From an uncultured Planctomycetota bacterium (GTDB lineage Bacteria; Planctomycetota; Planctomycetia; Isosphaerales; Isosphaeraceae): a stretch of DNA of 64,000 nucleotides. The first letter of the stretch is position 1; each line of letters starts with the position of its first letter. The DNA lies in contig CAVTTN010000002.1 of NCBI GenBank assembly GCA_963737655.1, positions 4,416,001 through 4,480,000 on the forward strand, read 5' to 3'. The notes beneath the pieces are model-generated. The model saw nothing but the letters and a program-made list of their open reading frames with translations, made no database searches and was not told the origin of the DNA. Made by a program: the position numbers and the translations under genes. Positions 28,328 to 37,100 of the stretch are shown piece after piece.

Positions 28328-28463
28328 CTCTGTAGAAAACCCATTGAGAATGAGGAAACGAGTAGGTCCGACTTCAGTCGGGCCGACGAAAATCCCTTGT
28401 TTCGTCGGCCCGACTGAAGTCGGACCTACTCGTTTCGATGCTTCGAAGGGTCTTCTTCAAGAG
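28328..28463. repeat. REPIN/MITE-like element, second copy
   Basis: CTCTGTAGAAAACCC...GAGTAGGTCCGACTTCAGTCGGGCC...GGCCCGACTGAAGTCGGACCTACTCG, as at 7209-7345. Confidence 0.82.
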
Positions 28464-28467
28464 CCTC

Positions 28468-28878
28468 TCAGAGCCACTTGCCGCCGCTCTTGTCCTGATA
28501 GATCGACCAGACGTAGCCGTCGGGGTCTTTCAGGGCGAATTCCCGCCATTCCCAGGACTGATCGACGGGGTCGCCCGAGACGGCGAGATACGCGCCTTCG
28601 TCGATGCAGTGCTGATGGAACGCGTCGACGTCCTCCACCCGGAGCTGCAAGTGGAGGCCGACGCCGACCCGCGTATCCTGGAACTCGTCCTCGTGCCCCT
28701 CCTGGGGGTGGAGCATCAGGCTGAAGTCGCCGATGCGGAGGACGGCCAGGGTGATCGGCCCGCCTTCCTCCTCGGCGTGGACCTGGGCGATCTCGGCGCC
28801 GACGACCTCATTATAGAATTCGATCGATTTCTCGATGTTATCGACGTAGAGGAACGCGCTGGTGACCCGGGCCGTCAT
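28468..28878 (-). CDS. VOC/glyoxalase family protein
   Basis: LYVDNIEKSIEFYNEVVG...QSWEWREFALKDPDGY. Confidence 0.88.
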   Translation of the reverse strand: MTARVTSAFLYVDNIEKSIEFYNEVVGAEIAQVHAEEEGGPITLAVLRIGDFSLMLHPQEGHEDEFQDTRVGVGLHLQLRVEDVDAFHQHCIDEGAYLAVSGDPVDQSWEWREFALKDPDGYVWSIYQDKSGGKWL

Positions 28879-29250
28879 GCCTTGGCTCTCCGTCGAATCG
28901 CCGTCGAGGGCCGAACTTCGGCGGAAGATACCCCGGACCGCCTCGTCATGCAATGCGGACCGGATCGGGGGGCCGGGTCCGGTTCCTTCTCGGAGGAGGA
29001 TTCCTCGGGAGCGTCCCGGGTGGCGGGGATTCCCCCGGAGTCACGCCCCTCTCGGCCGCGCGACATCCGCCGGACCCGCGAGGGGCGGACCACCGGCCCC
29101 GAAGGCCGAACCCGTTCCACCGAGCACGCTTCCGAGGAATCCTCCGTCGAGAAGGAACCGGCCTCGCCCCGCCCGGACCGGGGACTTCCCTTCGGCCCAT
29201 CTGGTGCTTATGCTTGGCCCCGCGACACCCCTCTCGTGCGAGGAACCGTC

Positions 29251-30204
29251 ATGACCGCCGTCGGACAGACCTATCGGGCCTCCGGGCCGATCGATGTTCG
29301 CTCGATCCTGACCACCACGATTCTCGGCGCGGTCGTCGCCGTGGTGGGCGCGGGGGTGGTCTGGCTCTGGGAGATCAGCCCGATCCCCACCCTCGTCCTG
29401 CTCACGCCGATCCTCCAGGGGGCGGTCGTCGGCGGGGCCCTGGGCTTCATGATCGGCCGGCTCCACCTGAGGAACCCCCGGCTCGTCGGGTTCGTCGGCT
29501 TTCTCTGCGGGCTGTTGAGCATCACGCTCGTCCACTACGGCCACCACCTCCACCTCGTCGGCCAGATCGCCGAGAACCTCCGCGAGCAGGCGGCCGGCGC
29601 CCCTCCCGAGGAGCGCGACGCCATCCTCAAGGAACTCGACGCCCATCCCACCGAGGTCGTCGATCAGGTCCTTCTGAGGGCAACCGGGCACTCCGGGTTC
29701 CTCGGGACCATGATGCTCCGCAACGAACAGGGCGTGATGATCAAGAACAGCACGGTCAACGGCGGAGGGCTGTGGGCCCTCTGGGGATTCGAGGCGCTTC
29801 TCGTGGCCGGTGCCGCCGGAGCGATCGCCGGAAGTCGCGCCGGCCAGCCCTATTGCGAAGATTGCCACGCCTGGCACGTCAAGAGCGCCGAGGTCCTGAC
29901 CGTGGGCGGAGGCCACGCCGAGGGGCTCGTCCAGGCGCTCCGAGACGACGCCCCGGACCGCCTGGACGGGTTCCGGGCCCAGGCCCACGAGGTCGATCCG
30001 ACGACCCAGGCCGTCGTCGATCTCCACTCCTGCCCCGGCTGCGACACGACCTTCGCCGACGTCCGCCATCGGTCCCGCAAGGGCAAGGAGACCAAGGAGA
30101 AACAACTCCTGGGCGCCCTCGCCATCTCGCCCGAGATGCTCCAGGCCATCCGCGCCGAGCCGACCCCTCCGCTGGCCCAGCCCGCCCCCGAGACCCCGGC
30201 GTGA
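29251..30204 (+). CDS. Membrane protein with C-terminal CxxC...CxxC domain
   Basis: GAGGA RBS; about four TM segments; YCEDC and SCPGC. Confidence 0.75.
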   Translation: MTAVGQTYRASGPIDVRSILTTTILGAVVAVVGAGVVWLWEISPIPTLVLLTPILQGAVVGGALGFMIGRLHLRNPRLVGFVGFLCGLLSITLVHYGHHLHLVGQIAENLREQAAGAPPEERDAILKELDAHPTEVVDQVLLRATGHSGFLGTMMLRNEQGVMIKNSTVNGGGLWALWGFEALLVAGAAGAIAGSRAGQPYCEDCHAWHVKSAEVLTVGGGHAEGLVQALRDDAPDRLDGFRAQAHEVDPTTQAVVDLHSCPGCDTTFADVRHRSRKGKETKEKQLLGALAISPEMLQAIRAEPTPPLAQPAPETPA

Positions 30205-30294: not shown

Positions 30295-31014
30295 TCACCA
30301 TCCTCGATTCCGAATCCGCCGCCCGGGGTGAGCTTTCCGGACCTCGGCATCCGTCGGATCGATTCGTGGAGGTACTCCGCCTCTCGGCGGATCTCGGCCA
30401 ACGGGCGGGAGGACGGCACGCGTCCGAGCTCGCCACGCAATCCCGCAGACGACCAGCGCCAGGACGCAGGCAGCGATCCCCGGTCGGGGCGGGTTGAGGC
30501 CGTCAAAAGCCCGCGATGGGATCAGCGCCTTGCCCGTCCACTCCGGTGATGAGGCCAGGATCTCGAAATCCTTGACCTCGACCTCTCCGGAGGCGTCGAT
30601 GATCTGGACGAGCTTGCCCGAGTGACCGACGGGGCGAATCGCGACGAAGTGGCCACTCGGACCCATTTGAAGATGGACGATCGCCGGTCTGTCGATGGGC
30701 CAGACCCTCTCGTCGAGTCGGACGCCGCGGAGGCAAAGGCCGAGGGAGGACGCAGCCGTGACGATCTCAGAAAGCGAACGGTTGTCTGACGGCTTATCGC
30801 CCATCGCACGAGCCACGGAAGACAGAGGAGCCGGAATCTCCTCCAATTGGCATAAGACGTACAGCGAGGCGACACTACAAGGCGGAGTGTCCGTGTTCGT
30901 AACGACCTCCGCGCTCGATGCCTGCGGCCCTCCACCCAGGAAGCAGAGGACGAGAAGGGAGGGTCGAGAGATCGCCTTCGAGATCCTGCCCAAAGGGCAT
31001 GTGATGGCTGGCAT
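30295..31014 (-). CDS. Stand-alone C39-family cysteine peptidase with N-terminal hydrophobic signal and C-terminal TM
   Basis: PPCSVASLYVL (Cys), SLSEIVTAASSLG, PAIVHL...GHFVAI (His), VQIID (Asp), WTGKAL; TGATG overlap with the upstream gene. Confidence 0.8.
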   Translation of the reverse strand: MPAITCPLGRISKAISRPSLLVLCFLGGGPQASSAEVVTNTDTPPCSVASLYVLCQLEEIPAPLSSVARAMGDKPSDNRSLSEIVTAASSLGLCLRGVRLDERVWPIDRPAIVHLQMGPSGHFVAIRPVGHSGKLVQIIDASGEVEVKDFEILASSPEWTGKALIPSRAFDGLNPPRPGIAACVLALVVCGIAWRARTRAVLPPVGRDPPRGGVPPRIDPTDAEVRKAHPGRRIRNRGW

Positions 31015-32135
31015 CACTCCCTCCACTTTCGGAAACCGGCGACGATGAGGCAGGCCGACCCGATGGTGAGCAAGCCCAGCCGGGCCGCCCCGGCCCAAGT
31101 CCACGATTCGCGCGAAGGGGCCGAGGCTTCGAGCGCCTTCGCCTGGCCATCGGCTTCCGCGATCACGCGGCGGATCCGATCTTCCACGCCTCTTGGGCCG
31201 GATCGTCGAGGCCCCTGGGCCTCGAATCGCTCCTTCGATTTCCGGAGTCCGTCCGAAGCCGGGGTCGCCTCCCAATCCAGCGAGAAGCGGCGGTCCGGGA
31301 GATCCTGATTGACGCGGACGCTCCCGTCCACGACCTCGAACGTCTCCTCGAAGACGGGCGTCTTGAGGAACCTGATCCCCGTGGGCTCAATCGTCAGGAA
31401 AGAGAGCCGCCGGCCGCGAACCGGTAGCCAGAAGACCTTATCACCGACCTCGAATCTCCCCAGACCGATCTCGTCGGCCTGCATCCGAAGGTTGTCGGTA
31501 TCAAAATAGTCGTATCGCAGGGGGTTCGCCCCTCGCTGCATGTCCAACCAAAACTTATGCGTATAAGCATCTTTCTGAAACCCGGGCGGCCGGTACACGA
31601 TTTCGACCTTGAGGCACATCCGCTCCGAGCAGCGTTCCCATCCGGCCACCCGTACGTGATAGAGGCTCGGGTCCTGTCTCAGGAGCAGGAGGAAGTGAGG
31701 GAGCAGGAAGATCCGAAGCGGCGAGCGCTGCTCGTCCAAGGAGCCGATGTACCCAGAGACCGCCTCGCGCCGGGACAACTGGAGCCTGCCGTCGGGCCTG
31801 CGATTCTGCCCCCGGACCGAGCCGTTCAGCAGGCATTTCGTCGCGTGCGTCAGGGGAGCGGTCGGGTTGGAAGGCTGGACGTAGACATCGATGTGGGCGG
31901 CGTCGTCCCGACGATAGGCGAACGCCCCCTGATACGACTCCTCGAAGGGATCATGAGCGCCGGGAGGCACCTTGGTTTTTCGGTAGCGGTGATACATGCT
32001 CCCTTCGTATATGAACTCGACGTCGTCCAGTTCCTGCCACTGGTCCCGGACGAGCACCGCCAGGCGTTCGGGAGTGATGTCCGTCGCATCCAGGGAGCCG
32101 AGGAGGCATGAGACAACTGCCACACCGATTCGCAT
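31014..32135 (-). CDS. Exported LolA-fold-like protein with C-terminal TM anchor
   Basis: Signal-like N-terminus; 'GWE......CLKVE...KFWLDMQRG.NPLRY' resembles LolA-superfamily beta-sheet motifs; ends LGLLTIGSACLIVAGFRKWRE; GGAG RBS. Fold is inferred. Confidence 0.6.
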   Translation of the reverse strand: MRIGVAVVSCLLGSLDATDITPERLAVLVRDQWQELDDVEFIYEGSMYHRYRKTKVPPGAHDPFEESYQGAFAYRRDDAAHIDVYVQPSNPTAPLTHATKCLLNGSVRGQNRRPDGRLQLSRREAVSGYIGSLDEQRSPLRIFLLPHFLLLLRQDPSLYHVRVAGWERCSERMCLKVEIVYRPPGFQKDAYTHKFWLDMQRGANPLRYDYFDTDNLRMQADEIGLGRFEVGDKVFWLPVRGRRLSFLTIEPTGIRFLKTPVFEETFEVVDGSVRVNQDLPDRRFSLDWEATPASDGLRKSKERFEAQGPRRSGPRGVEDRIRRVIAEADGQAKALEASAPSRESWTWAGAARLGLLTIGSACLIVAGFRKWRE

Positions 32136-32231
32136 GGGGATGCTCCTGGGGGTCAGAGGAGTCCGGAAAGAGGAGAGGGGCCGCGTTCGACGCGCTCCCG
32201 GTCTCTCCGAGGACAGGTATCCGCCAGAAGA

Positions 32232-32723
32232 TCAATCGCCTCCGCCGCCGGGGGCGGCCTGATTCCAATATTGCGTGACGTTGTCACAGAACGTATCTCC
32301 CGGGGTATATTGGGCACACTTGGGCTGATTATTGACGATCGTGCAGGCACCGACCGCGTTCTTGCCGCATGGCACCGTCTCGCCGAACTGGATGCCGGGC
32401 GTCGCGACGTTGTCGGGATCGGTGTAGACCTTCATGTCCGTCGGATCGGCGGCGTTGGTGCATGCGATACAGTTCGTGTTGCCCGAATTCTGAACGGTGC
32501 AGCCATAGGTCCCGACGAGCGGAGGCGTCGGGGTGAGGTTTTCGTCGCAGGACGACAGGGAGTTGAGGAATGTGTGCCGGTCGGCGCCCGAGGTGGTGTC
32601 GAGGTCCGCAAGGCTCAGCGAGCCGAGGCGATCGGTCGGCTTGGCGGCGGACATCCACCCTGCCACGGCGAGCGCCGTGAAACCGATGATGGAAAGCCGC
32701 GAGACGGCGGAGTTGCGGGTCAT
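32232..32723 (-). CDS. Secreted Cys-rich precursor with double-glycine-type leader (163 aa, 8 Cys)
   Basis: Hydrophobic residues ~10-27; LSLADLDTTSGA at 36-47; 116-aa Cys/Thr/Asn/Pro-rich remainder; GGAG RBS. Confidence 0.75.
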   Translation of the reverse strand: MTRNSAVSRLSIIGFTALAVAGWMSAAKPTDRLGSLSLADLDTTSGADRHTFLNSLSSCDENLTPTPPLVGTYGCTVQNSGNTNCIACTNAADPTDMKVYTDPDNVATPGIQFGETVPCGKNAVGACTIVNNQPKCAQYTPGDTFCDNVTQYWNQAAPGGGGD

Positions 32724-32848
32724 CGTTGATGCTCCGTGGTTCTGAAGGATAGGGATGCGGAAGGGCCGCGGGAGGACTCAGGCGGATCTTCGATCCCCGT
32801 GTTCGGAGGGGACCACCAATGGCCTCCCGTCCGGGGGATGACGAGGGA

Positions 32849-33865
32849 TCAATCGACGAGTTCCGAGCCATTGCGGCTGCCCAGGCCGCGCCAGACGGGC
32901 TGAGAAATCGATTCCGGGACGAACCGGACCGAGCCGTCCGCCATCAAAACGTTCACGCCGCCGGGGTGCAGGCTCCGGGCCGTGGCCATGCCGAGCGCGG
33001 CATACATCGAAGGGGCGAGGCAATCGGGCACCGAGCCGTTGGGGGCCTGGGCATGGTTGTAGAGGGTCCGCTCGCGGCCCGACCAGAACCAGCCACTCCC
33101 ACCGCCCACGTAGGCCCCGACTCCGGGCCGGGCGAACGCCTGACATCCGTGGACGAGCTGATCCGCCGTGAACAGGGCGGTCCGCCACGGATAGTAGTCC
33201 CGAGCCGGGATCGGGTCGTCATCCCGGCCCGAGCCGCGGAGCCGTTCGCTGAACGCGGCGGTGTGGGAGAACCCGTCGGGGACGGAGGCGGCCAGGACGT
33301 AGGCGGCCTCGGGGAAGAGCCCGTTGCCGCTGTCCGAGAATTCTGCGGAAGTATGGGCGCCGGGGCCGATGCCCACGTTCCCTCGATAATTGTTCCCCGC
33401 CCACCCCGGCAATCCGCCGTCGCTCGGGCAGAGGAAGAGATCGACGACCGTGGCGGCGACCGTCGCGTTGGCGGCGTTCCGCGACTCCTCGGAGGCGCCG
33501 AGGCTCGCGATCCCCAGGGCGTTCGGGGGCAAGGTCCCGATGGCGAAATTCGCGGAATCAAACAGGGTGGTCTGGTCGAGATAGGGCAGGAGCCGGGAAT
33601 GGACGGAATAGAATCCCATGTAACCGACCCGACCGTTGGTCATGTTCGACGGCGGGAACCAATCGTTGTCCCGGATGTATCCGTGGAGCGCCAATCCGAT
33701 CTGCCGGAGATTGTTGCTGCATCGGGCCCGCCTCGCCGCCTCGCGGGCCGCCTGGACGGCCGGCAAGAGCAGCGCGGTCAGGATCGCCGTCAAGCCGAGG
33801 ACGACGAGGGCCTCGATCAGCGTGAAGCCGGCGCGTCGGCTCGCCGGGCCCAAGGAATGGGTCAT
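32849..33865 (-). CDS. DUF1559 prepilin-type N-terminal cleavage/methylation protein
   Basis: [11 protein letters not shown]...[39 protein letters not shown]-terminal [16 protein letters not shown] (H-X9-DG). Confidence 0.93.
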
Positions 33866-34922
33866 CGACGGGCCTCCCCGGAGTTGGGGACCTTGAGCAG
33901 GTGGACGACGACTCGGGCCTGCTCCGGGTCGTCGGTCTCGATCACGACATCGCCCGCCTCCGCATCGCGGGGCGGGCCGATGGACAAGCCGATCCGATGG
34001 AGACCCGCGGCCCCGGAGGTGCCTCTCGTGACCTCGACGAATCGAGGGCTCGTGATCCGCACGACGCGGAACGGTATGCCGTCCGACCTCAAGAGGATCG
34101 ACCGCTTGACCTGGTCCCCGGATTCCCCGAAGACGAGGGAGGGAGGGAAGGCCCGGATCTTGGGAAGCACTTCCCAATTCAGAACGTGTCGGTATGGTGC
34201 GTCCGAGGACCAGGTGACCGTGATCTCGCCCGTTCGCTGTCCCGGCATTTCTCCGGGCGGTATCTCCACTTCGATGTCACGGATCGTCTCCACCAACCCC
34301 TCGGGCAGCGAGCGGGATGTTTCGGGCCCGGCGAAACGGGCGGATAGGGGACTCGCGGCGAGGACGGCCCGAGGGCCACTTCGTCCGAGCTGGCCCAGCC
34401 GACGGCTCGTGATCCGGAGCCGCCGTCGGCCACTCCTGTTCACGACGACCACGCTCGACGTCCCCTCGGAATCGATTTCCGACGCCTCGAAATCGGAGAA
34501 GAGATTCGCGCTGAGGGTGTACAGGAAGACCGGACGATCGGCCGAGGCCGTCTCGACCGCGAAGGCGAACCTCCTGGGACCCGTCTGTCGTCCGGCGTTG
34601 AACCGGACTGGCACCCGGATGCTCGCCCCGGCCGGGACGACGTCCGGCAGCGGACCGATCGACGAGCAGCACGGTATCCTGGCAGCCACCTTGGTCAACT
34701 TTAGCGGGGACGACGAAGCGTTTTCCAGCAAGAAATCGTGAGTGATAGTCTGATCATGGCCTAGCACGAGCCCGAAATCAAAATGCTGAATCGAATCCCC
34801 CGCGACCTTCTCGGGGGCCGCCAGCTCGACCCCAGGAGAGACATCGATCCGGTCCGTCGCGGGCCGAGAACAGCCGGCGATCATATATATATATATATGA
34901 TCGAAAAATATTTCCTTTGCAT
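33862..34922 (-). CDS. DUF1573 Ig-like domain lipoprotein, out of frame at an (AT)8 tract in the signal-peptide region
   Basis: FDFGLV...F.LEN....PLKL......PCC...PG; lipobox IAG|C. The ATG at 34922 with GAGGA RBS reads [13 protein letters not shown] as assembled. ATGA overlap with the DUF1559 gene. Confidence 0.75.
34878..34903. repeat. (AT)8 microsatellite inside a perfect 26-bp palindrome CGATC(AT)8GATCG
   Basis: Read directly; AT tract at 34883-34898. Confidence 0.95.
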
Positions 34923-35189: not shown

Positions 35190-36680
35190 ATGTTTGATGA
35201 TATCCAGAAACGCCTCTCCGGCGCCTTCGGCCGGTTCCGGGCCCGAGGGGTCTTGACCGAGGCGAACATCCAGGACGGCCTGCGAGAGGTCCGCACGGCC
35301 CTTTTGGAAGCGGACGTCCATTACAACGTCGTCCAGGCGTTCATGGCCCGGGTGGGCGAGCAGGCCGTCGGCGCCAACCTGATCAAGAGCGTCCGTCCCG
35401 AGCAGCAGATCGTCAAGATCGTCCACGACGAGCTCGTGGCCCTGATGGGCCCGGCCGACGCCTCGATCCGCATCGAGAAGAACGGCCCGACGGTGCTGAT
35501 GCTCTGCGGCCTCCAGGGTTCCGGCAAGACGACGACCTGCGGCAAGCTCGCGAAGATGCTGAGCGCCCAGGGCCGCAAGCCCCTGCTCGTCGCCGCCGAC
35601 CTCCAGCGCCCCGCCGCCATCGAGCAGTTGAAGGTGATCGGCCAGCAGCTGCAAATCCCCGTCTACAGCGAGGCCACCGCCAACCCGGTGAAGGTCTGCC
35701 AGGATGCCCTGGTCGAGGCCAACCGCCAGGGCCGCGACACGATCATCCTCGACACCGCCGGGCGCCTCCACGTCGACGACGCCCTGATGGCCGAGCTCCA
35801 GCAGATCGAGAAGAAAGTCAAGCCGCATCAGGTGTTCTTCGTCTGCGACGCCCTGACCGGCCAGGACGCCGTGGCCTCCGCCGGGGCGTTCAACAAGGCC
35901 CTCGAGCTCGACGGCGTGATCCTCACGAAGCTCGACGGCGACGCCCGGGGCGGCGCCGCGCTGTCGGTCCGCCAGGTCACCGGCGTCCCGATCAAGTTCG
36001 TGGGCATGGGCGAGAAGCTCGACAAGCTCCAGCCCTTCGACCCCGAGCGCCTGGTCGGCCAGATGCTGGGCATGGGGGACATCGTCGGGCTGGTCGAGGC
36101 CGCGCAATCGGCCGTGGACGAGGAAGAGGCCCTCCGGCAACAGGAGAAGCTCGCCAAGGGCAAGTTCGACCTCAACGACTTCCGCCAGCAGATCATCCAG
36201 ATGAAGAAGATGGGGTCCGTCAAGGACCTCATGAGCAAGATCCCCGGGATGAGCCAGATGACCGGCCAGCTCGACGGCGTGGACGCCGACGGCGAGGTCA
36301 AGCGCATCCAGGGGATCATCGACAGCATGACCCCCGAGGAGAGGAAGAACCCCCACCTGATCAACATCTCCCGACGGCGACGGATCGCCGCCGGGGCGGG
36401 CGTGGACCCGTCGGACATCTCCGGGCTCGTCGATCAGTTCGACGCCATGGCCGCCGTCGTCAAGCAGATGGCCTCGATGTCCATGCTCGACAAGATCCGG
36501 ATGATGACCGGCCTGGGCCGCGCCGGCGCCTTCAACCCCGGCGCCAAGCTCGTGGCCCCCAAGCAGGGCACCGGCAAGAGGCTGAGCCCCAAGGAACGCG
36601 AGAAGCTGAAGAAGCAGAGAGAGAAGGAAGAGCGAAAGAAACGGCGGGAGGAGCGCGGCCAGAGGCCCCCGGGCCCCTGA
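35190..36680 (+). CDS. ffh: Signal recognition particle protein
   Basis: GLQGSGKTT, DTAGR, TKLDGDARGG, SMTPEER...SRRRRIAAGAG. Confidence 0.98.
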   Translation: MFDDIQKRLSGAFGRFRARGVLTEANIQDGLREVRTALLEADVHYNVVQAFMARVGEQAVGANLIKSVRPEQQIVKIVHDELVALMGPADASIRIEKNGPTVLMLCGLQGSGKTTTCGKLAKMLSAQGRKPLLVAADLQRPAAIEQLKVIGQQLQIPVYSEATANPVKVCQDALVEANRQGRDTIILDTAGRLHVDDALMAELQQIEKKVKPHQVFFVCDALTGQDAVASAGAFNKALELDGVILTKLDGDARGGAALSVRQVTGVPIKFVGMGEKLDKLQPFDPERLVGQMLGMGDIVGLVEAAQSAVDEEEALRQQEKLAKGKFDLNDFRQQIIQMKKMGSVKDLMSKIPGMSQMTGQLDGVDADGEVKRIQGIIDSMTPEERKNPHLINISRRRRIAAGAGVDPSDISGLVDQFDAMAAVVKQMASMSMLDKIRMMTGLGRAGAFNPGAKLVAPKQGTGKRLSPKEREKLKKQREKEERKKRREERGQRPPGP

Positions 36681-36743: not shown

Positions 36744-37100
36744 ATGAGCCTCTCGGAAAGGCCCGACGAATCCACCCTCGAGGAATTCCTCCGGCAGGTC
36801 CGGCGGGCGGACCCCGGGCGGCGCGACGACGAGATCGCGAGGGCGTTCCCCGGCCTGGCCTCCCGGCTCCGAAGGATTCGACGGCCCGGCCCGCACAGGG
36901 ACACGGTCGCGATCGAACGCATCGTCGAGGCGATGACCGCCGCCGAGAGGGCCGAACCGCGGGAGATCGGGCCGGAAAGGATCGCCGAAGTCGCCGCGGC
37001 GGCCGGCGTCGGCCGCCCCACGATCGAAGACATCCTCAGCCAGTTCCAAGCCATGAAGGCCATCGTCTCCGCGATGAAGCATCGCCCAAGGAACCCATGA
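36744..37100 (+). CDS. Stand-alone SRP54/Ffh M-domain-like protein (118 aa)
   Basis: Aligns by eye with the C-terminal M-domain of the adjacent Ffh (TLEEFLRQ / DLNDFRQQ; IVEAMTAAERAEP / IIDSMTPEERKNP; LSQFQAM / VDQFDAM). Confidence 0.8.
   Translation: MSLSERPDESTLEEFLRQVRRADPGRRDDEIARAFPGLASRLRRIRRPGPHRDTVAIERIVEAMTAAERAEPREIGPERIAEVAAAAGVGRPTIEDILSQFQAMKAIVSAMKHRPRNP

Follow-up and report, generated by a model that had tools for sequence, protein, structure and literature searches.

A five-gene Isosphaeraceae cassette links a stand-alone C39 peptidase of predicted periplasmic location to a putative cysteine-rich substrate with a double-glycine-type leader

Double-glycine processing is usually tied to the cytoplasmic peptidase domains of ATP-binding cassette (ABC) exporters. 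The leaders concerned form the N-terminus of a cytoplasmic precursor without a Sec signal, their consensus consists of hydrophobic residues at positions -12, -7 and -4 followed by Gly and then Gly, Ala or Ser, and the C39 enzymes have an oxyanion-hole Gln upstream of the catalytic Cys. To our knowledge, FapD of the Pseudomonas Fap amyloid system is the only periplasmic C39 protein that has been studied. In the sections that Rouse et al. (PMC5557850) devote to it, FapD is a stand-alone periplasmic C39 protein with a Sec signal that is catalytically required for Fap secretion; the same sections give C39 cleavage as occurring 'at a GG motif (and sometimes GA)', describe the FapD target as unknown and the Fap proteins as lacking canonical C39 sites, and call this C39 class yet to be characterised. 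Here, we analyzed a 64,000-nucleotide stretch of Isosphaeraceae DNA (the window; contig CAVTTN010000002.1 of assembly GCA_963737655.1) that carries on its minus strand a cassette of five genes, g1 to g5, encoding a stand-alone C39 peptidase (g5) and a cysteine-rich protein with a leader of this kind (g3). We consider it likely that this Isosphaeraceae cassette is dedicated to the periplasmic maturation of a secreted disulfide-rich protein, which would be cleaved in the double-glycine manner with no ABC transporter involved. A preliminary description of the locus had already read it as a periplasmic double-glycine processing system, and had staked that reading on the C39 fold, on a leader-bearing precursor and on the co-occurrence of the genes in other genomes; all three held, and the reading is supported.

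The five genes that had been described as co-oriented are indeed present as minus-strand open reading frames (ORFs) between 30295 and 34884. They are listed here together with the parts of g3, all coordinates being positions in the window:

33862-34884, minus strand: g1, a DUF1573 Ig-like protein of 340 amino acids whose homologues are lipoproteins (Pfam; lipobox signals of the homologues)
32849-33865, minus strand: g2, a DUF1559 prepilin-type protein of 338 amino acids with an N-terminal methylation motif at residues 9-34 and an HX9DG C-terminus (Pfam/NCBIfam)
32232-32723, minus strand: g3, a predicted pre-pro-protein of 163 amino acids composed of an export segment, a double-glycine-type leader and an 8-Cys core
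32655-32696, minus strand: g3 export segment, residues 10-23, hydrophobic, a signal peptide or signal anchor (hydropathy)
32583-32618, minus strand: g3 leader motif, residues 36-47, LSLADLDTTSGA (alignment column counts)
Between 32583 and 32582, minus strand: predicted C39 cut in g3, after Ala47 (Gly46-Ala47)
32235-32582, minus strand: predicted mature core of g3, residues 48-163, with 8 conserved Cys
31014-32135, minus strand: g4, a LolA-fold protein of 373 amino acids with an N-terminal signal, a long helix and a C-terminal membrane anchor at residues 350-366
30295-31014, minus strand: g5, a C39 cysteine peptidase of 239 amino acids with an N-terminal signal, the peptidase domain at residues 36-168 (with Cys46, His122 and Asp140), an anchor at residues 178-194 and a basic tail

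The identification of the 30295-31014 product as a C39 protein, proposed in the preliminary description, was confirmed by sequence profiles and by structure prediction. The g5 protein matches Peptidase_C39 (PF03412) with 29.5 bits in the Pfam search (cut-off 22) and with 31.1 bits, also above the cut-off, in the scan of the genome. No further domain was found in it by Pfam, and its score against the NHLM ABC model is 10.3 bits, for a cut-off of 853. In the alignment of 21 g5 homologues, Cys46 and His122 are invariant and position 140 is occupied by Asp in 18 sequences and by Asn in the other 3. When the g5 family was compared as a profile with the PDB, the peptidase domains of ComA, PCAT1 and LahT150 were recovered (E 1.2e-6 to 1e-5), and the alignment with the ComA peptidase (E=1.2e-6) extends across the DCG, GH(F/Y) and (I/L)D(P) motifs; the ComA residues that align with Cys46, His122 and position 140 are the catalytic residues of ComA. 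The profile was needed for this result, the single g5 sequence giving only a chance match in the PDB. The same domains are the best Foldseek matches of the AlphaFold model of g5 (PCAT1, ComA and LahT150, E 3.5e-7 to 8.4e-6), a model in which the predicted local distance difference test score (pLDDT) exceeds 90 over residues 40-170 and which gives target-normalised template-modelling scores of 0.66-0.74 with entries 7n87, 5xe9, 3k8u and 6mpz. Elsewhere in the genome, at C2:6007459-6007839, an unlinked and conventional C39 domain (103.6 bits) occupies the start of an 822-amino-acid open frame, which presumably encodes a peptidase-containing ABC transporter (PCAT).

The predicted topology of g5 and of its neighbor g4 was read from the hydropathy of their homologues. 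An N-terminal hydrophobic stretch is present in all 21 C39 proteins, a C-terminal 17-mer with a Kyte-Doolittle (KD) hydropathy of at least 1.6 in 19 of them, and 3-6 basic residues (Arg/Lys) follow this 17-mer in 20. The LolA-like proteins resemble them in this respect, since all 18 that were compared combine an N-terminal hydrophobic stretch with a long helix, a C-terminal hydrophobic segment (KD of at least 1.6 in 17 of the 18) and a basic end of 2-4 residues. By the positive-inside rule, the bodies of both the C39 and the LolA-like protein would lie in the periplasm, tethered to the inner membrane by the C-terminal anchor.

To analyze the putative substrate across genomes, we used a set of 38 loci with 40 C39 sites, made up of 20 neighbourhoods, 17 non-duplicate loci from species-representative genomes and the window. 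ORFs resembling g3 were picked from these loci by their position, length and Cys count, not by the motif, and were aligned with MAFFT (n=34). A Cys-rich ORF lies between the DUF1559 and LolA-like genes at 34 of the 40 sites; among the sites where it is missing, L047 and L059 are at contig ends, and L035 has a short version with 4 Cys beside a C39 gene with in-frame stops. Eight Cys columns are filled in 33-34 of the 34 sequences. The leader was counted in the 30 sequences in which its block is intact, the other four being fragments produced by frameshifts or a contig end, and reads [LIV] at -12, L at -7, [VIS] at -4, R at -3, G at -2 and [ASG] at -1, followed by [ND]-P. The small Cys-rich ORF with a conserved leader that the preliminary description expected in homologous loci was thus found, with the following residues at each position:

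Position -12: L, I or V in 27/30
Position -7: L or M in 30/30
Position -4: V, I, L or A in 21/30 (S or T in 9)
Position -3: R in 21/30
Position -2: G in 30/30
Position -1: A, S, G or T in 24/30 (R 2, L 2, Q 1, C 1)
Position +1: N or D in 19/30
Position +2: P in 12/30

In each of 15 g3 sequences compared, the leader has a hydrophobic 14-mer (KD 1.5-3.4) ahead of it. The spacing is constant, as the hydrophobic segment ends 20-28 residues before the Gly at -2 and the first Cys comes 9-13 residues after this Gly. When 1.84 billion representatives were searched exhaustively with the g3 profile, 450 g3-family proteins were recovered at E <=1e-3 and 84 at E <=1e-10, nearly all of 130-200 amino acids, while a word-indexed protein search yielded only 5 relatives. 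Profile searches of Pfam, NCBIfam and the PDB assigned g3 to no known family, and the ESM Atlas gave no usable match. The methylamine dehydrogenase small subunit, which appeared in these comparisons with E=0.025 and 14.5 bits (cut-off 197), was dismissed as a match of Cys-rich composition. In one protein of 2588 amino acids, P0129, as many as 24 distinct segments match the CxxC region of the g3 profile (positions 74-122); P0129 may be a giant repeat protein built of a similar Cys-rich unit or a compositional match.

These features set the cassette beside two described systems. It shares with PCATs such as ComA, PCAT1 and LahT150 the fold of g5 and the positions of its Cys, His and Asp/Asn residues, as well as the leader positions -12, -7 and -4, the Gly at -2 and the small residue at -1 of g3. 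In contrast to PCATs, no transporter domains are fused or linked to the peptidase, g5 has a signal and a C-terminal anchor of its own, and in g3 a hydrophobic export segment, not the leader, comes first. The Arg at -3 and the [ND]-P after the predicted cut are specific to the g3 family, and the predicted cargo is a core of about 100 amino acids with 8 Cys instead of a short peptide. g5 is a true member of the C39 family, but the cassette is not a PCAT system. FapD, which is likewise a stand-alone C39 protein with a signal and is periplasmic, as predicted for g5, is the nearest functional precedent, on a comparison that uses the published description of FapD. Unlike the Fap system, the cassette contains a linked putative substrate with a near-canonical site. 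Pfam found neither the FapF barrel nor the FapB/C/E amyloid-repeat families among the five products, no other family recurs in the flanks, and the partners are instead a pseudopilin, a LolA-fold protein and an Ig-like lipoprotein.

The genes of the cassette travel together. Of 61 genomes drawn from the same family, 21 have a g5 homologue, often with 2-3 copies each. The LolA-like gene lies directly upstream of the C39 gene at 37 of the 40 sites, and DUF1559 is found upstream at 36, the 4 misses all being at contig ends. DUF1573 is present upstream at 27 sites, and 9 of the 13 misses are too near a contig end. In 20 further loci from metagenomes, the LolA-like gene is upstream of the C39 gene in 16 and the 4 misses begin at a contig edge; where these loci include enough upstream DNA, the order DUF1573, DUF1559, LolA-like, C39 is kept in 6 of 7. 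The same order therefore recurs in the 38 genome loci and in the metagenome set, in agreement with the co-occurrence on which the preliminary description had relied. Of the 20 LolA-linked sites listed, 9 show a 4-nucleotide overlap between the stop of the LolA-like gene and the start of the C39 gene. No other gene family, ABC gene, sigma factor or regulator recurs in the flanks (7 kb upstream and 6 kb downstream).

The labelled records among 27 genome loci all belong to Isosphaeraceae, Planctomycetales, Planctomycetaceae or Planctomycetota, and one of the loci (L057) comes from a cultured strain, Tautonia sociabilis GM2012. When 300 genomes from other parts of the phylum were scanned with the LolA-like profile, only 3 gave a match, one of them with an adjoining C39 gene. 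In a genome of the same genus (G049), no C39 match was obtained and an unrelated gene lies beside ffh; as the contig ends 1.6 kb past ffh, this does no more than suggest that the cassette is missing at the ffh site of this genome. Given this patchy distribution and a congener without C39, the cassette behaves as an accessory, patchily inherited island of Isosphaeraceae. A literature search limited to full-text records, in which most papers were judged by title or abstract, returned no description of this cassette.

Several individual loci depart from the standard layout. The genome of the window contains a second, partly decayed cassette (L032, C2:1434000-1452000) with DUF1559, LolA-like and C39 genes, in which the Cys-rich ORF is split by a frameshift into two overlapping frames and a sub-threshold DUF1573 match lies at C2:1438938-1439183. 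In L045 (G032:C1:439000-458999) two cassettes stand in tandem, the second directly after the first and without a DUF1573 gene of its own. Approximately 1.5 kb of extra DNA separates the frameshifted precursor from the LolA-like gene in L049 (G048:C1), where the gap is 2421 nucleotides. In L033 and L051, the LolA-like gene appears as two overlapping tblastn pieces or a shortened ORF, which suggests frameshifts or assembly errors.

We then considered the remaining products, which the preliminary description had called LolA-like (g4), DUF1559 (g2) and DUF1573 (g1). For g4 this is right at the level of the fold. Its only match to curated models is a sub-threshold one to MucB_RseB (13.6 bits, cut-off 22.3, E=0.05), and LolA_like or DUF2092 were matched by only single members of the 18 LolA-like proteins (E ~0.01-0.03). 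The g4 model (mean pLDDT 83) matches by Foldseek LolA3 (9tp6, E=1.2e-9), a DUF1329 protein, 3bk5, NE2245 and RseB, with E from 1.2e-9 to 1e-6, and MucB, 4z48 and 3buu are also among the matches, all of which points to a half-barrel of the LolA superfamily. g4 shares this fold with LolA, LolB and RseB but differs from them in its predicted tethering by a C-terminal anchor behind a long helix and in its weak sequence signal.

The other two assignments stood at the sequence level. g2 matches SBP_bac_10/DUF1559 with 146.7 bits (E=1.8e-42), N_methyl with 25.5 bits and the HX9DG C-terminal domain TIGR04294 with 45 bits (cut-off 19), and it thereby has the methylation motif, the SBP_bac_10 domain and the HX9DG end of the DUF1559/HX9DG proteins, which resemble type II secretion pseudopilins. 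DUF1559 has 51 matches in the source genome. Against the cassette DUF1559 proteins of other genomes, g2 scores a median of 302.5 bits at 53.7% identity, versus 178 bits for the best of 47 unlinked paralogues of its own genome; by these scores, g2 is a member of a cassette-specific DUF1559 subfamily, which sets it apart from the DUF1559 family at large. The DUF1573 match of g1 (28.9 bits, cut-off 26.1) covers residues 34-121, and nothing else in the source genome matches g1 at E <1e-5. Both the DUF1559 and the DUF1573 proteins of the cassette are nearer to cassette copies elsewhere than to paralogues in the same genome.

The start of g1 carries a further feature. In the preliminary description the region ended at 34922 and all five products had an export signal. 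In this assembly the signal is intact in four of the five, but g1 retains only a lipobox remnant, MIAGC, in frame, and the end at 34922 had to be abandoned, as the ATG at this position is in another frame than the DUF1573 body and opens a 13-codon ORF that ends at a dinucleotide repeat:

34883-34898, minus strand: (AT)8 repeat (8.0 perfect copies) abutting the in-frame ATG of g1, a candidate slipped-strand switch (Tandem Repeats Finder, TRF)
34885-34922, minus strand: short upstream ORF from ATG 34922, with a basic and then a hydrophobic stretch, the would-be n- and h-regions of a lipoprotein signal (three-frame translation)

To place this repeat in context, perfect repeats with a period of at most 9 and at least 4 copies were collected with TRF from 459,823 nucleotides of the 38 loci and from 99,247 nucleotides of the metagenome set. 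The 38 loci contain 12 such repeats, of which 8 lie 14-152 nucleotides upstream of the DUF1573 match, and 3 of the 5 repeats of the metagenome set are at the equivalent place upstream of DUF1573:

Window: (AT)8, 5' end of g1
L035: (GCTGT)9.4, upstream of the DUF1573 match
L036: (GCATT)7.6, upstream of the DUF1573 match
L037: (CTTGC)7.6, upstream of the DUF1573 match
L044: (CCTTG)6.4, upstream of the DUF1573 match
L049: (GCTCT)7.8, upstream of the DUF1573 match
L051: (GCTCT)7.8, the unit of L049 in another register
L050: poly-G(23), put aside as doubtful and possibly an assembly artefact
L092: (GCTCT)4.2, metagenome
L097: (GTCGA)5.8, metagenome
L103: (AGCCG)5.2, metagenome

Altogether, 11 of the 17 repeats found in 559,070 nucleotides are within 160 nucleotides upstream of DUF1573, a zone that makes up about 1% of the sequence (binomial p ~9e-19). 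They occur in 11 of the 34 cassettes that have a DUF1573 gene, and nine loci besides the window have units of 5 nucleotides. The flank pattern of the (AT)n tract of the window was not found in the metagenome contigs. Three-frame translation of the repeat-bearing g1 copies shows that a start codon and basic residues read into the repeat, that all frames of the repeat encode hydrophobic peptides, and that the lipobox and the mature domain are in a frame other than that of the start codon. In L097 and L103, the repeat comes after a complete lipoprotein signal, and the body behind the repeat is out of frame. In the window, ATG 34922 and the basic-hydrophobic stretch are in frame 0, and the lipobox and body are in frame 2, with the in-frame start at 34884 (MIAGC); a shift by a single AT unit, if it went the right way, would unite the two frames. 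Cassettes that have no repeat have ordinary lipoprotein signals in g1.

The arrangement recalls the Neisseria opa genes, in which a pentanucleotide coding repeat in the signal-peptide region sets the reading frame through its copy number. As in opa, the frame depends on copy number, since the repeat units of the cassettes are not multiples of three and are found within the signal-peptide region of g1 or directly behind it. The cassettes differ from opa in that at least 7 repeat units are found across loci, and in that g1 is the first gene of an operon whose stop and start codons overlap, which means that a switch might act on the whole cassette; they differ also in that all 10 clear cases are out of frame, in a comparison that uses assembled sequence for the cassettes. 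We regard the tract as a candidate Opa-like phase switch of g1 export. Our literature search returned no report of phase variation in Planctomycetes.

From these data a course of events can be proposed. The 163-amino-acid g3 protein would enter the Sec pathway by its N-terminal hydrophobic segment, which would then be cleaved or kept as a membrane anchor. The C-terminally anchored g5, with its domain in the periplasm, would cut g3 after positions -2 and -1 of the leader (Gly46-Ala47), about 20-28 residues past this segment, a step that we infer from the conservation of the motif, the intact catalytic set, the topology and the linkage of the two genes. The cut would free a core of about 100 amino acids with 8 Cys, presumably forming four disulfides. 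g4, g2 and g1 might then hold, present or export the core, or act on each other: g4 could be a chaperone, either of a hydrophobic leader or of the g1 acyl chains, g2 an adaptor pseudopilin for the export of a folded protein, and g1 an Ig-like holder. In about one third of the cassettes, the repeat number would set the export of g1, and translational coupling may extend this effect to the genes behind it. A broader proposal, which we consider possible rather than probable, is that the cassette constitutes a new envelope pathway in which a periplasmic C39 peptidase frees a tethered pro-protein, a LolA-fold chaperone and a lipoprotein pass the diversifying core to a DUF1559 pseudopilus for display or secretion, and repeat slippage in the g1 signal peptide switches the whole pathway.

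Several observations weigh against the cleavage of g3 by g5 or against parts of this course of events. First, the predicted complex of the peptidase with the leader gives only weak support. The C39 domain (residues 36-172) and g3 residues 26-70 were modelled as a pair, each with its own family alignment, and scored 0.41 (runs 0.41, 0.43 and 0.41), the best of 3 controls scoring 0.00; the runs share at least 82% of contacts and the partner pLDDT is at least 53. Of 157 solved complexes, 116 reached this mark, as did 2 of 215 mismatched pairs; at 0.60 or under, only 18 of the 157 solved complexes reached it, together with both mismatched pairs. Because leader-bound C39 structures (6mpz, 6v9z) have already been solved, the pass may reflect mere likeness to solved complexes. 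Second, no conserved Gln column precedes Cys46 in the 21-sequence alignment, also not six residues upstream, in a region that is variable and poorly aligned, and the oxyanion-hole Gln of C39 enzymes is therefore not evident. Third, some copies are decayed, with frameshifted precursors in L032 and L049, in-frame stops in the C39 gene of L035 and a truncated LolA-like gene in L082. Fourth, the core of g3, although the most divergent component of the cassette (median pairwise identity 20.9%, versus 23.5% for the LolA-like protein and 33.5% for the C39 protein), is just slightly more divergent than the LolA-like protein, so that 'hypervariable' overstates the case. Fifth, 10 of 10 clear repeat-bearing g1 copies are out of frame, for which the chance is 1.7% if the phase is random, although L092 has a possible alternative in-frame ATG. 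Off-states dominate in contingency loci of this kind, and the absence of in-frame copies may mean either that they do so here or that something other than simple switching is at work.

Two further observations of this sort concern the substrate itself. In L043, L046 and L069 there is no room for a precursor gene (gaps of 121-302 nucleotides), and the residue at -1, usually Gly, Ala or Ser, is at times Arg or Leu, as in 2 plus 2 of the 30 intact leaders and in 15 plus 15 of 149 listed g3-family proteins of less than 260 amino acids. All of these 149 proteins have Gly at -2, while 143 have L or M at -7, 144 have L, I or V at -12 and 114 have R at -3, counts that come from a profile alignment that includes the motif columns and is hence biased towards the motif. 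The three cassettes that have no precursor gene and the Arg or Leu at -1 in 4/30 would be expected if the C39 peptidase cut another protein, be it a cassette partner or an unlinked one, and the leader-like block of g3 served another end, for example docking to the LolA-fold protein. The precedent of FapD, whose substrate is given as still unknown and whose candidate substrates are without the canonical motif in the sections cited (PMC5557850), points the same way. We nevertheless consider this unlikely: the g3 block has the double-glycine spacing of -12, -7, -4 and -2 with an invariant Gly at -2, and the motif occurs as a leader in g3 only, the other four cassette proteins being without it and the single regular-expression match in g2 falling inside the DUF1559 domain. 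The complex score of 0.41 versus 0.00 argues weakly in the same direction.

The likeness of g4 to RseB and MucB, seen both in its model, which matches them as well as LolA, and in its weak Pfam match to MucB_RseB, raises the alternative of a regulated-proteolysis or signalling module, in which g4 would guard a tethered g3 until a cue arrives, as RseB guards RseA. This would fit with an anchored g3, and many g3 copies indeed have no obvious signal-peptidase site and may stay anchored. However, the mere 9 or so residues before its hydrophobic segment leave g3 without a cytoplasmic output domain, the neighbours of the cassette include no recurrent sigma factor or regulator, and the best matches of g4 are LolA3, DUF1329 and 3bk5, not RseB. 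We therefore judge a signalling role to be quite improbable.

The decayed copies mentioned above could also indicate that the cassette is a remnant without present function in this genome. Its g1 is out of frame with the signal, a frameshift disrupts the precursor of the second cassette of this genome, stops or truncations are present in several loci, and the content of G and C at third codon positions (GC3) is below that of the flanks. Against this, four of the five genes in the window are intact with coupled junctions, the frame of g1 is lost precisely where a perfect repeat lies, as happens in reversible switches, and selection is implied by the conservation of the catalytic residues and the eight Cys between loci with no more than 20-35% identity; a remnant is thus very unlikely. 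Highly improbable, too, is that g3 is an ordinary double-glycine precursor of the bacteriocin type, exported by an unlinked C39-ABC transporter while the cassette C39 protein is inactive and chaperone-like, for although a second and stronger C39 match exists in the 822-amino-acid open frame at C2:6007459 and catalytically dead C39-like domains are on record (3zua; mentioned in PMC5557850), the Cys and His of the cassette C39 protein are invariant in 21/21 and its Asp/Asn is kept, it has its own signal and anchor, it is inherited together with the precursor, and g3 has ahead of its leader an export segment that transporter substrates are not known to have.

The surroundings of the cassette in the window are largely as first described. 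The ATGA overlap of g1 and g2 reads at 33865..33862 and the TGATG junction of g4 and g5 at 31016..31012, with GGAGGGAG just upstream of the latter. The weaker GC bias is seen as a GC3 of 0.71-0.86 in the five genes versus 0.86-0.96 in six flanking genes (overall GC of the genome, 0.687). The cassette lies between a membrane-protein ORF, which ends at 30204, and ffh (35190-36680, plus strand), and, again as described, there is no ABC transporter or modifying enzyme in the flanks within the window. Promoter and terminator scans gave nothing exceeding the shuffled expectation, and PADLOC found no defence-system match for the five cassette proteins. Directly after ffh, a 118-amino-acid ORF (36744-37100, plus strand) matches the SRP54 M domain alone (PF02978, E=4.5e-9) and looks like a stand-alone M-domain-like protein adjoining ffh. 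On the other side, a VOC/glyoxalase-family ORF (28468-28953, minus strand, E=3.7e-13) overlaps the 5' part of the long ORF 28438-30204 (plus strand), and therefore the membrane-protein gene probably starts much later than 28438.

The cassette places a C39 peptidase and a near-canonical putative substrate side by side in dozens of loci, which makes the question of what a periplasmic C39 protein cuts directly testable. It also puts a DUF1559 pseudopilin, from a family that is greatly expanded in planctomycetes and for which we know of no function, into a defined functional context. If the broader pathway proposed here is true, it would give a first function to a DUF1559 member and a first defined substrate to the periplasmic C39 class. 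It would also be the first contingency locus in Planctomycetes, no earlier one being known to us, with repeat tracts that point to phase variation in this phylum.

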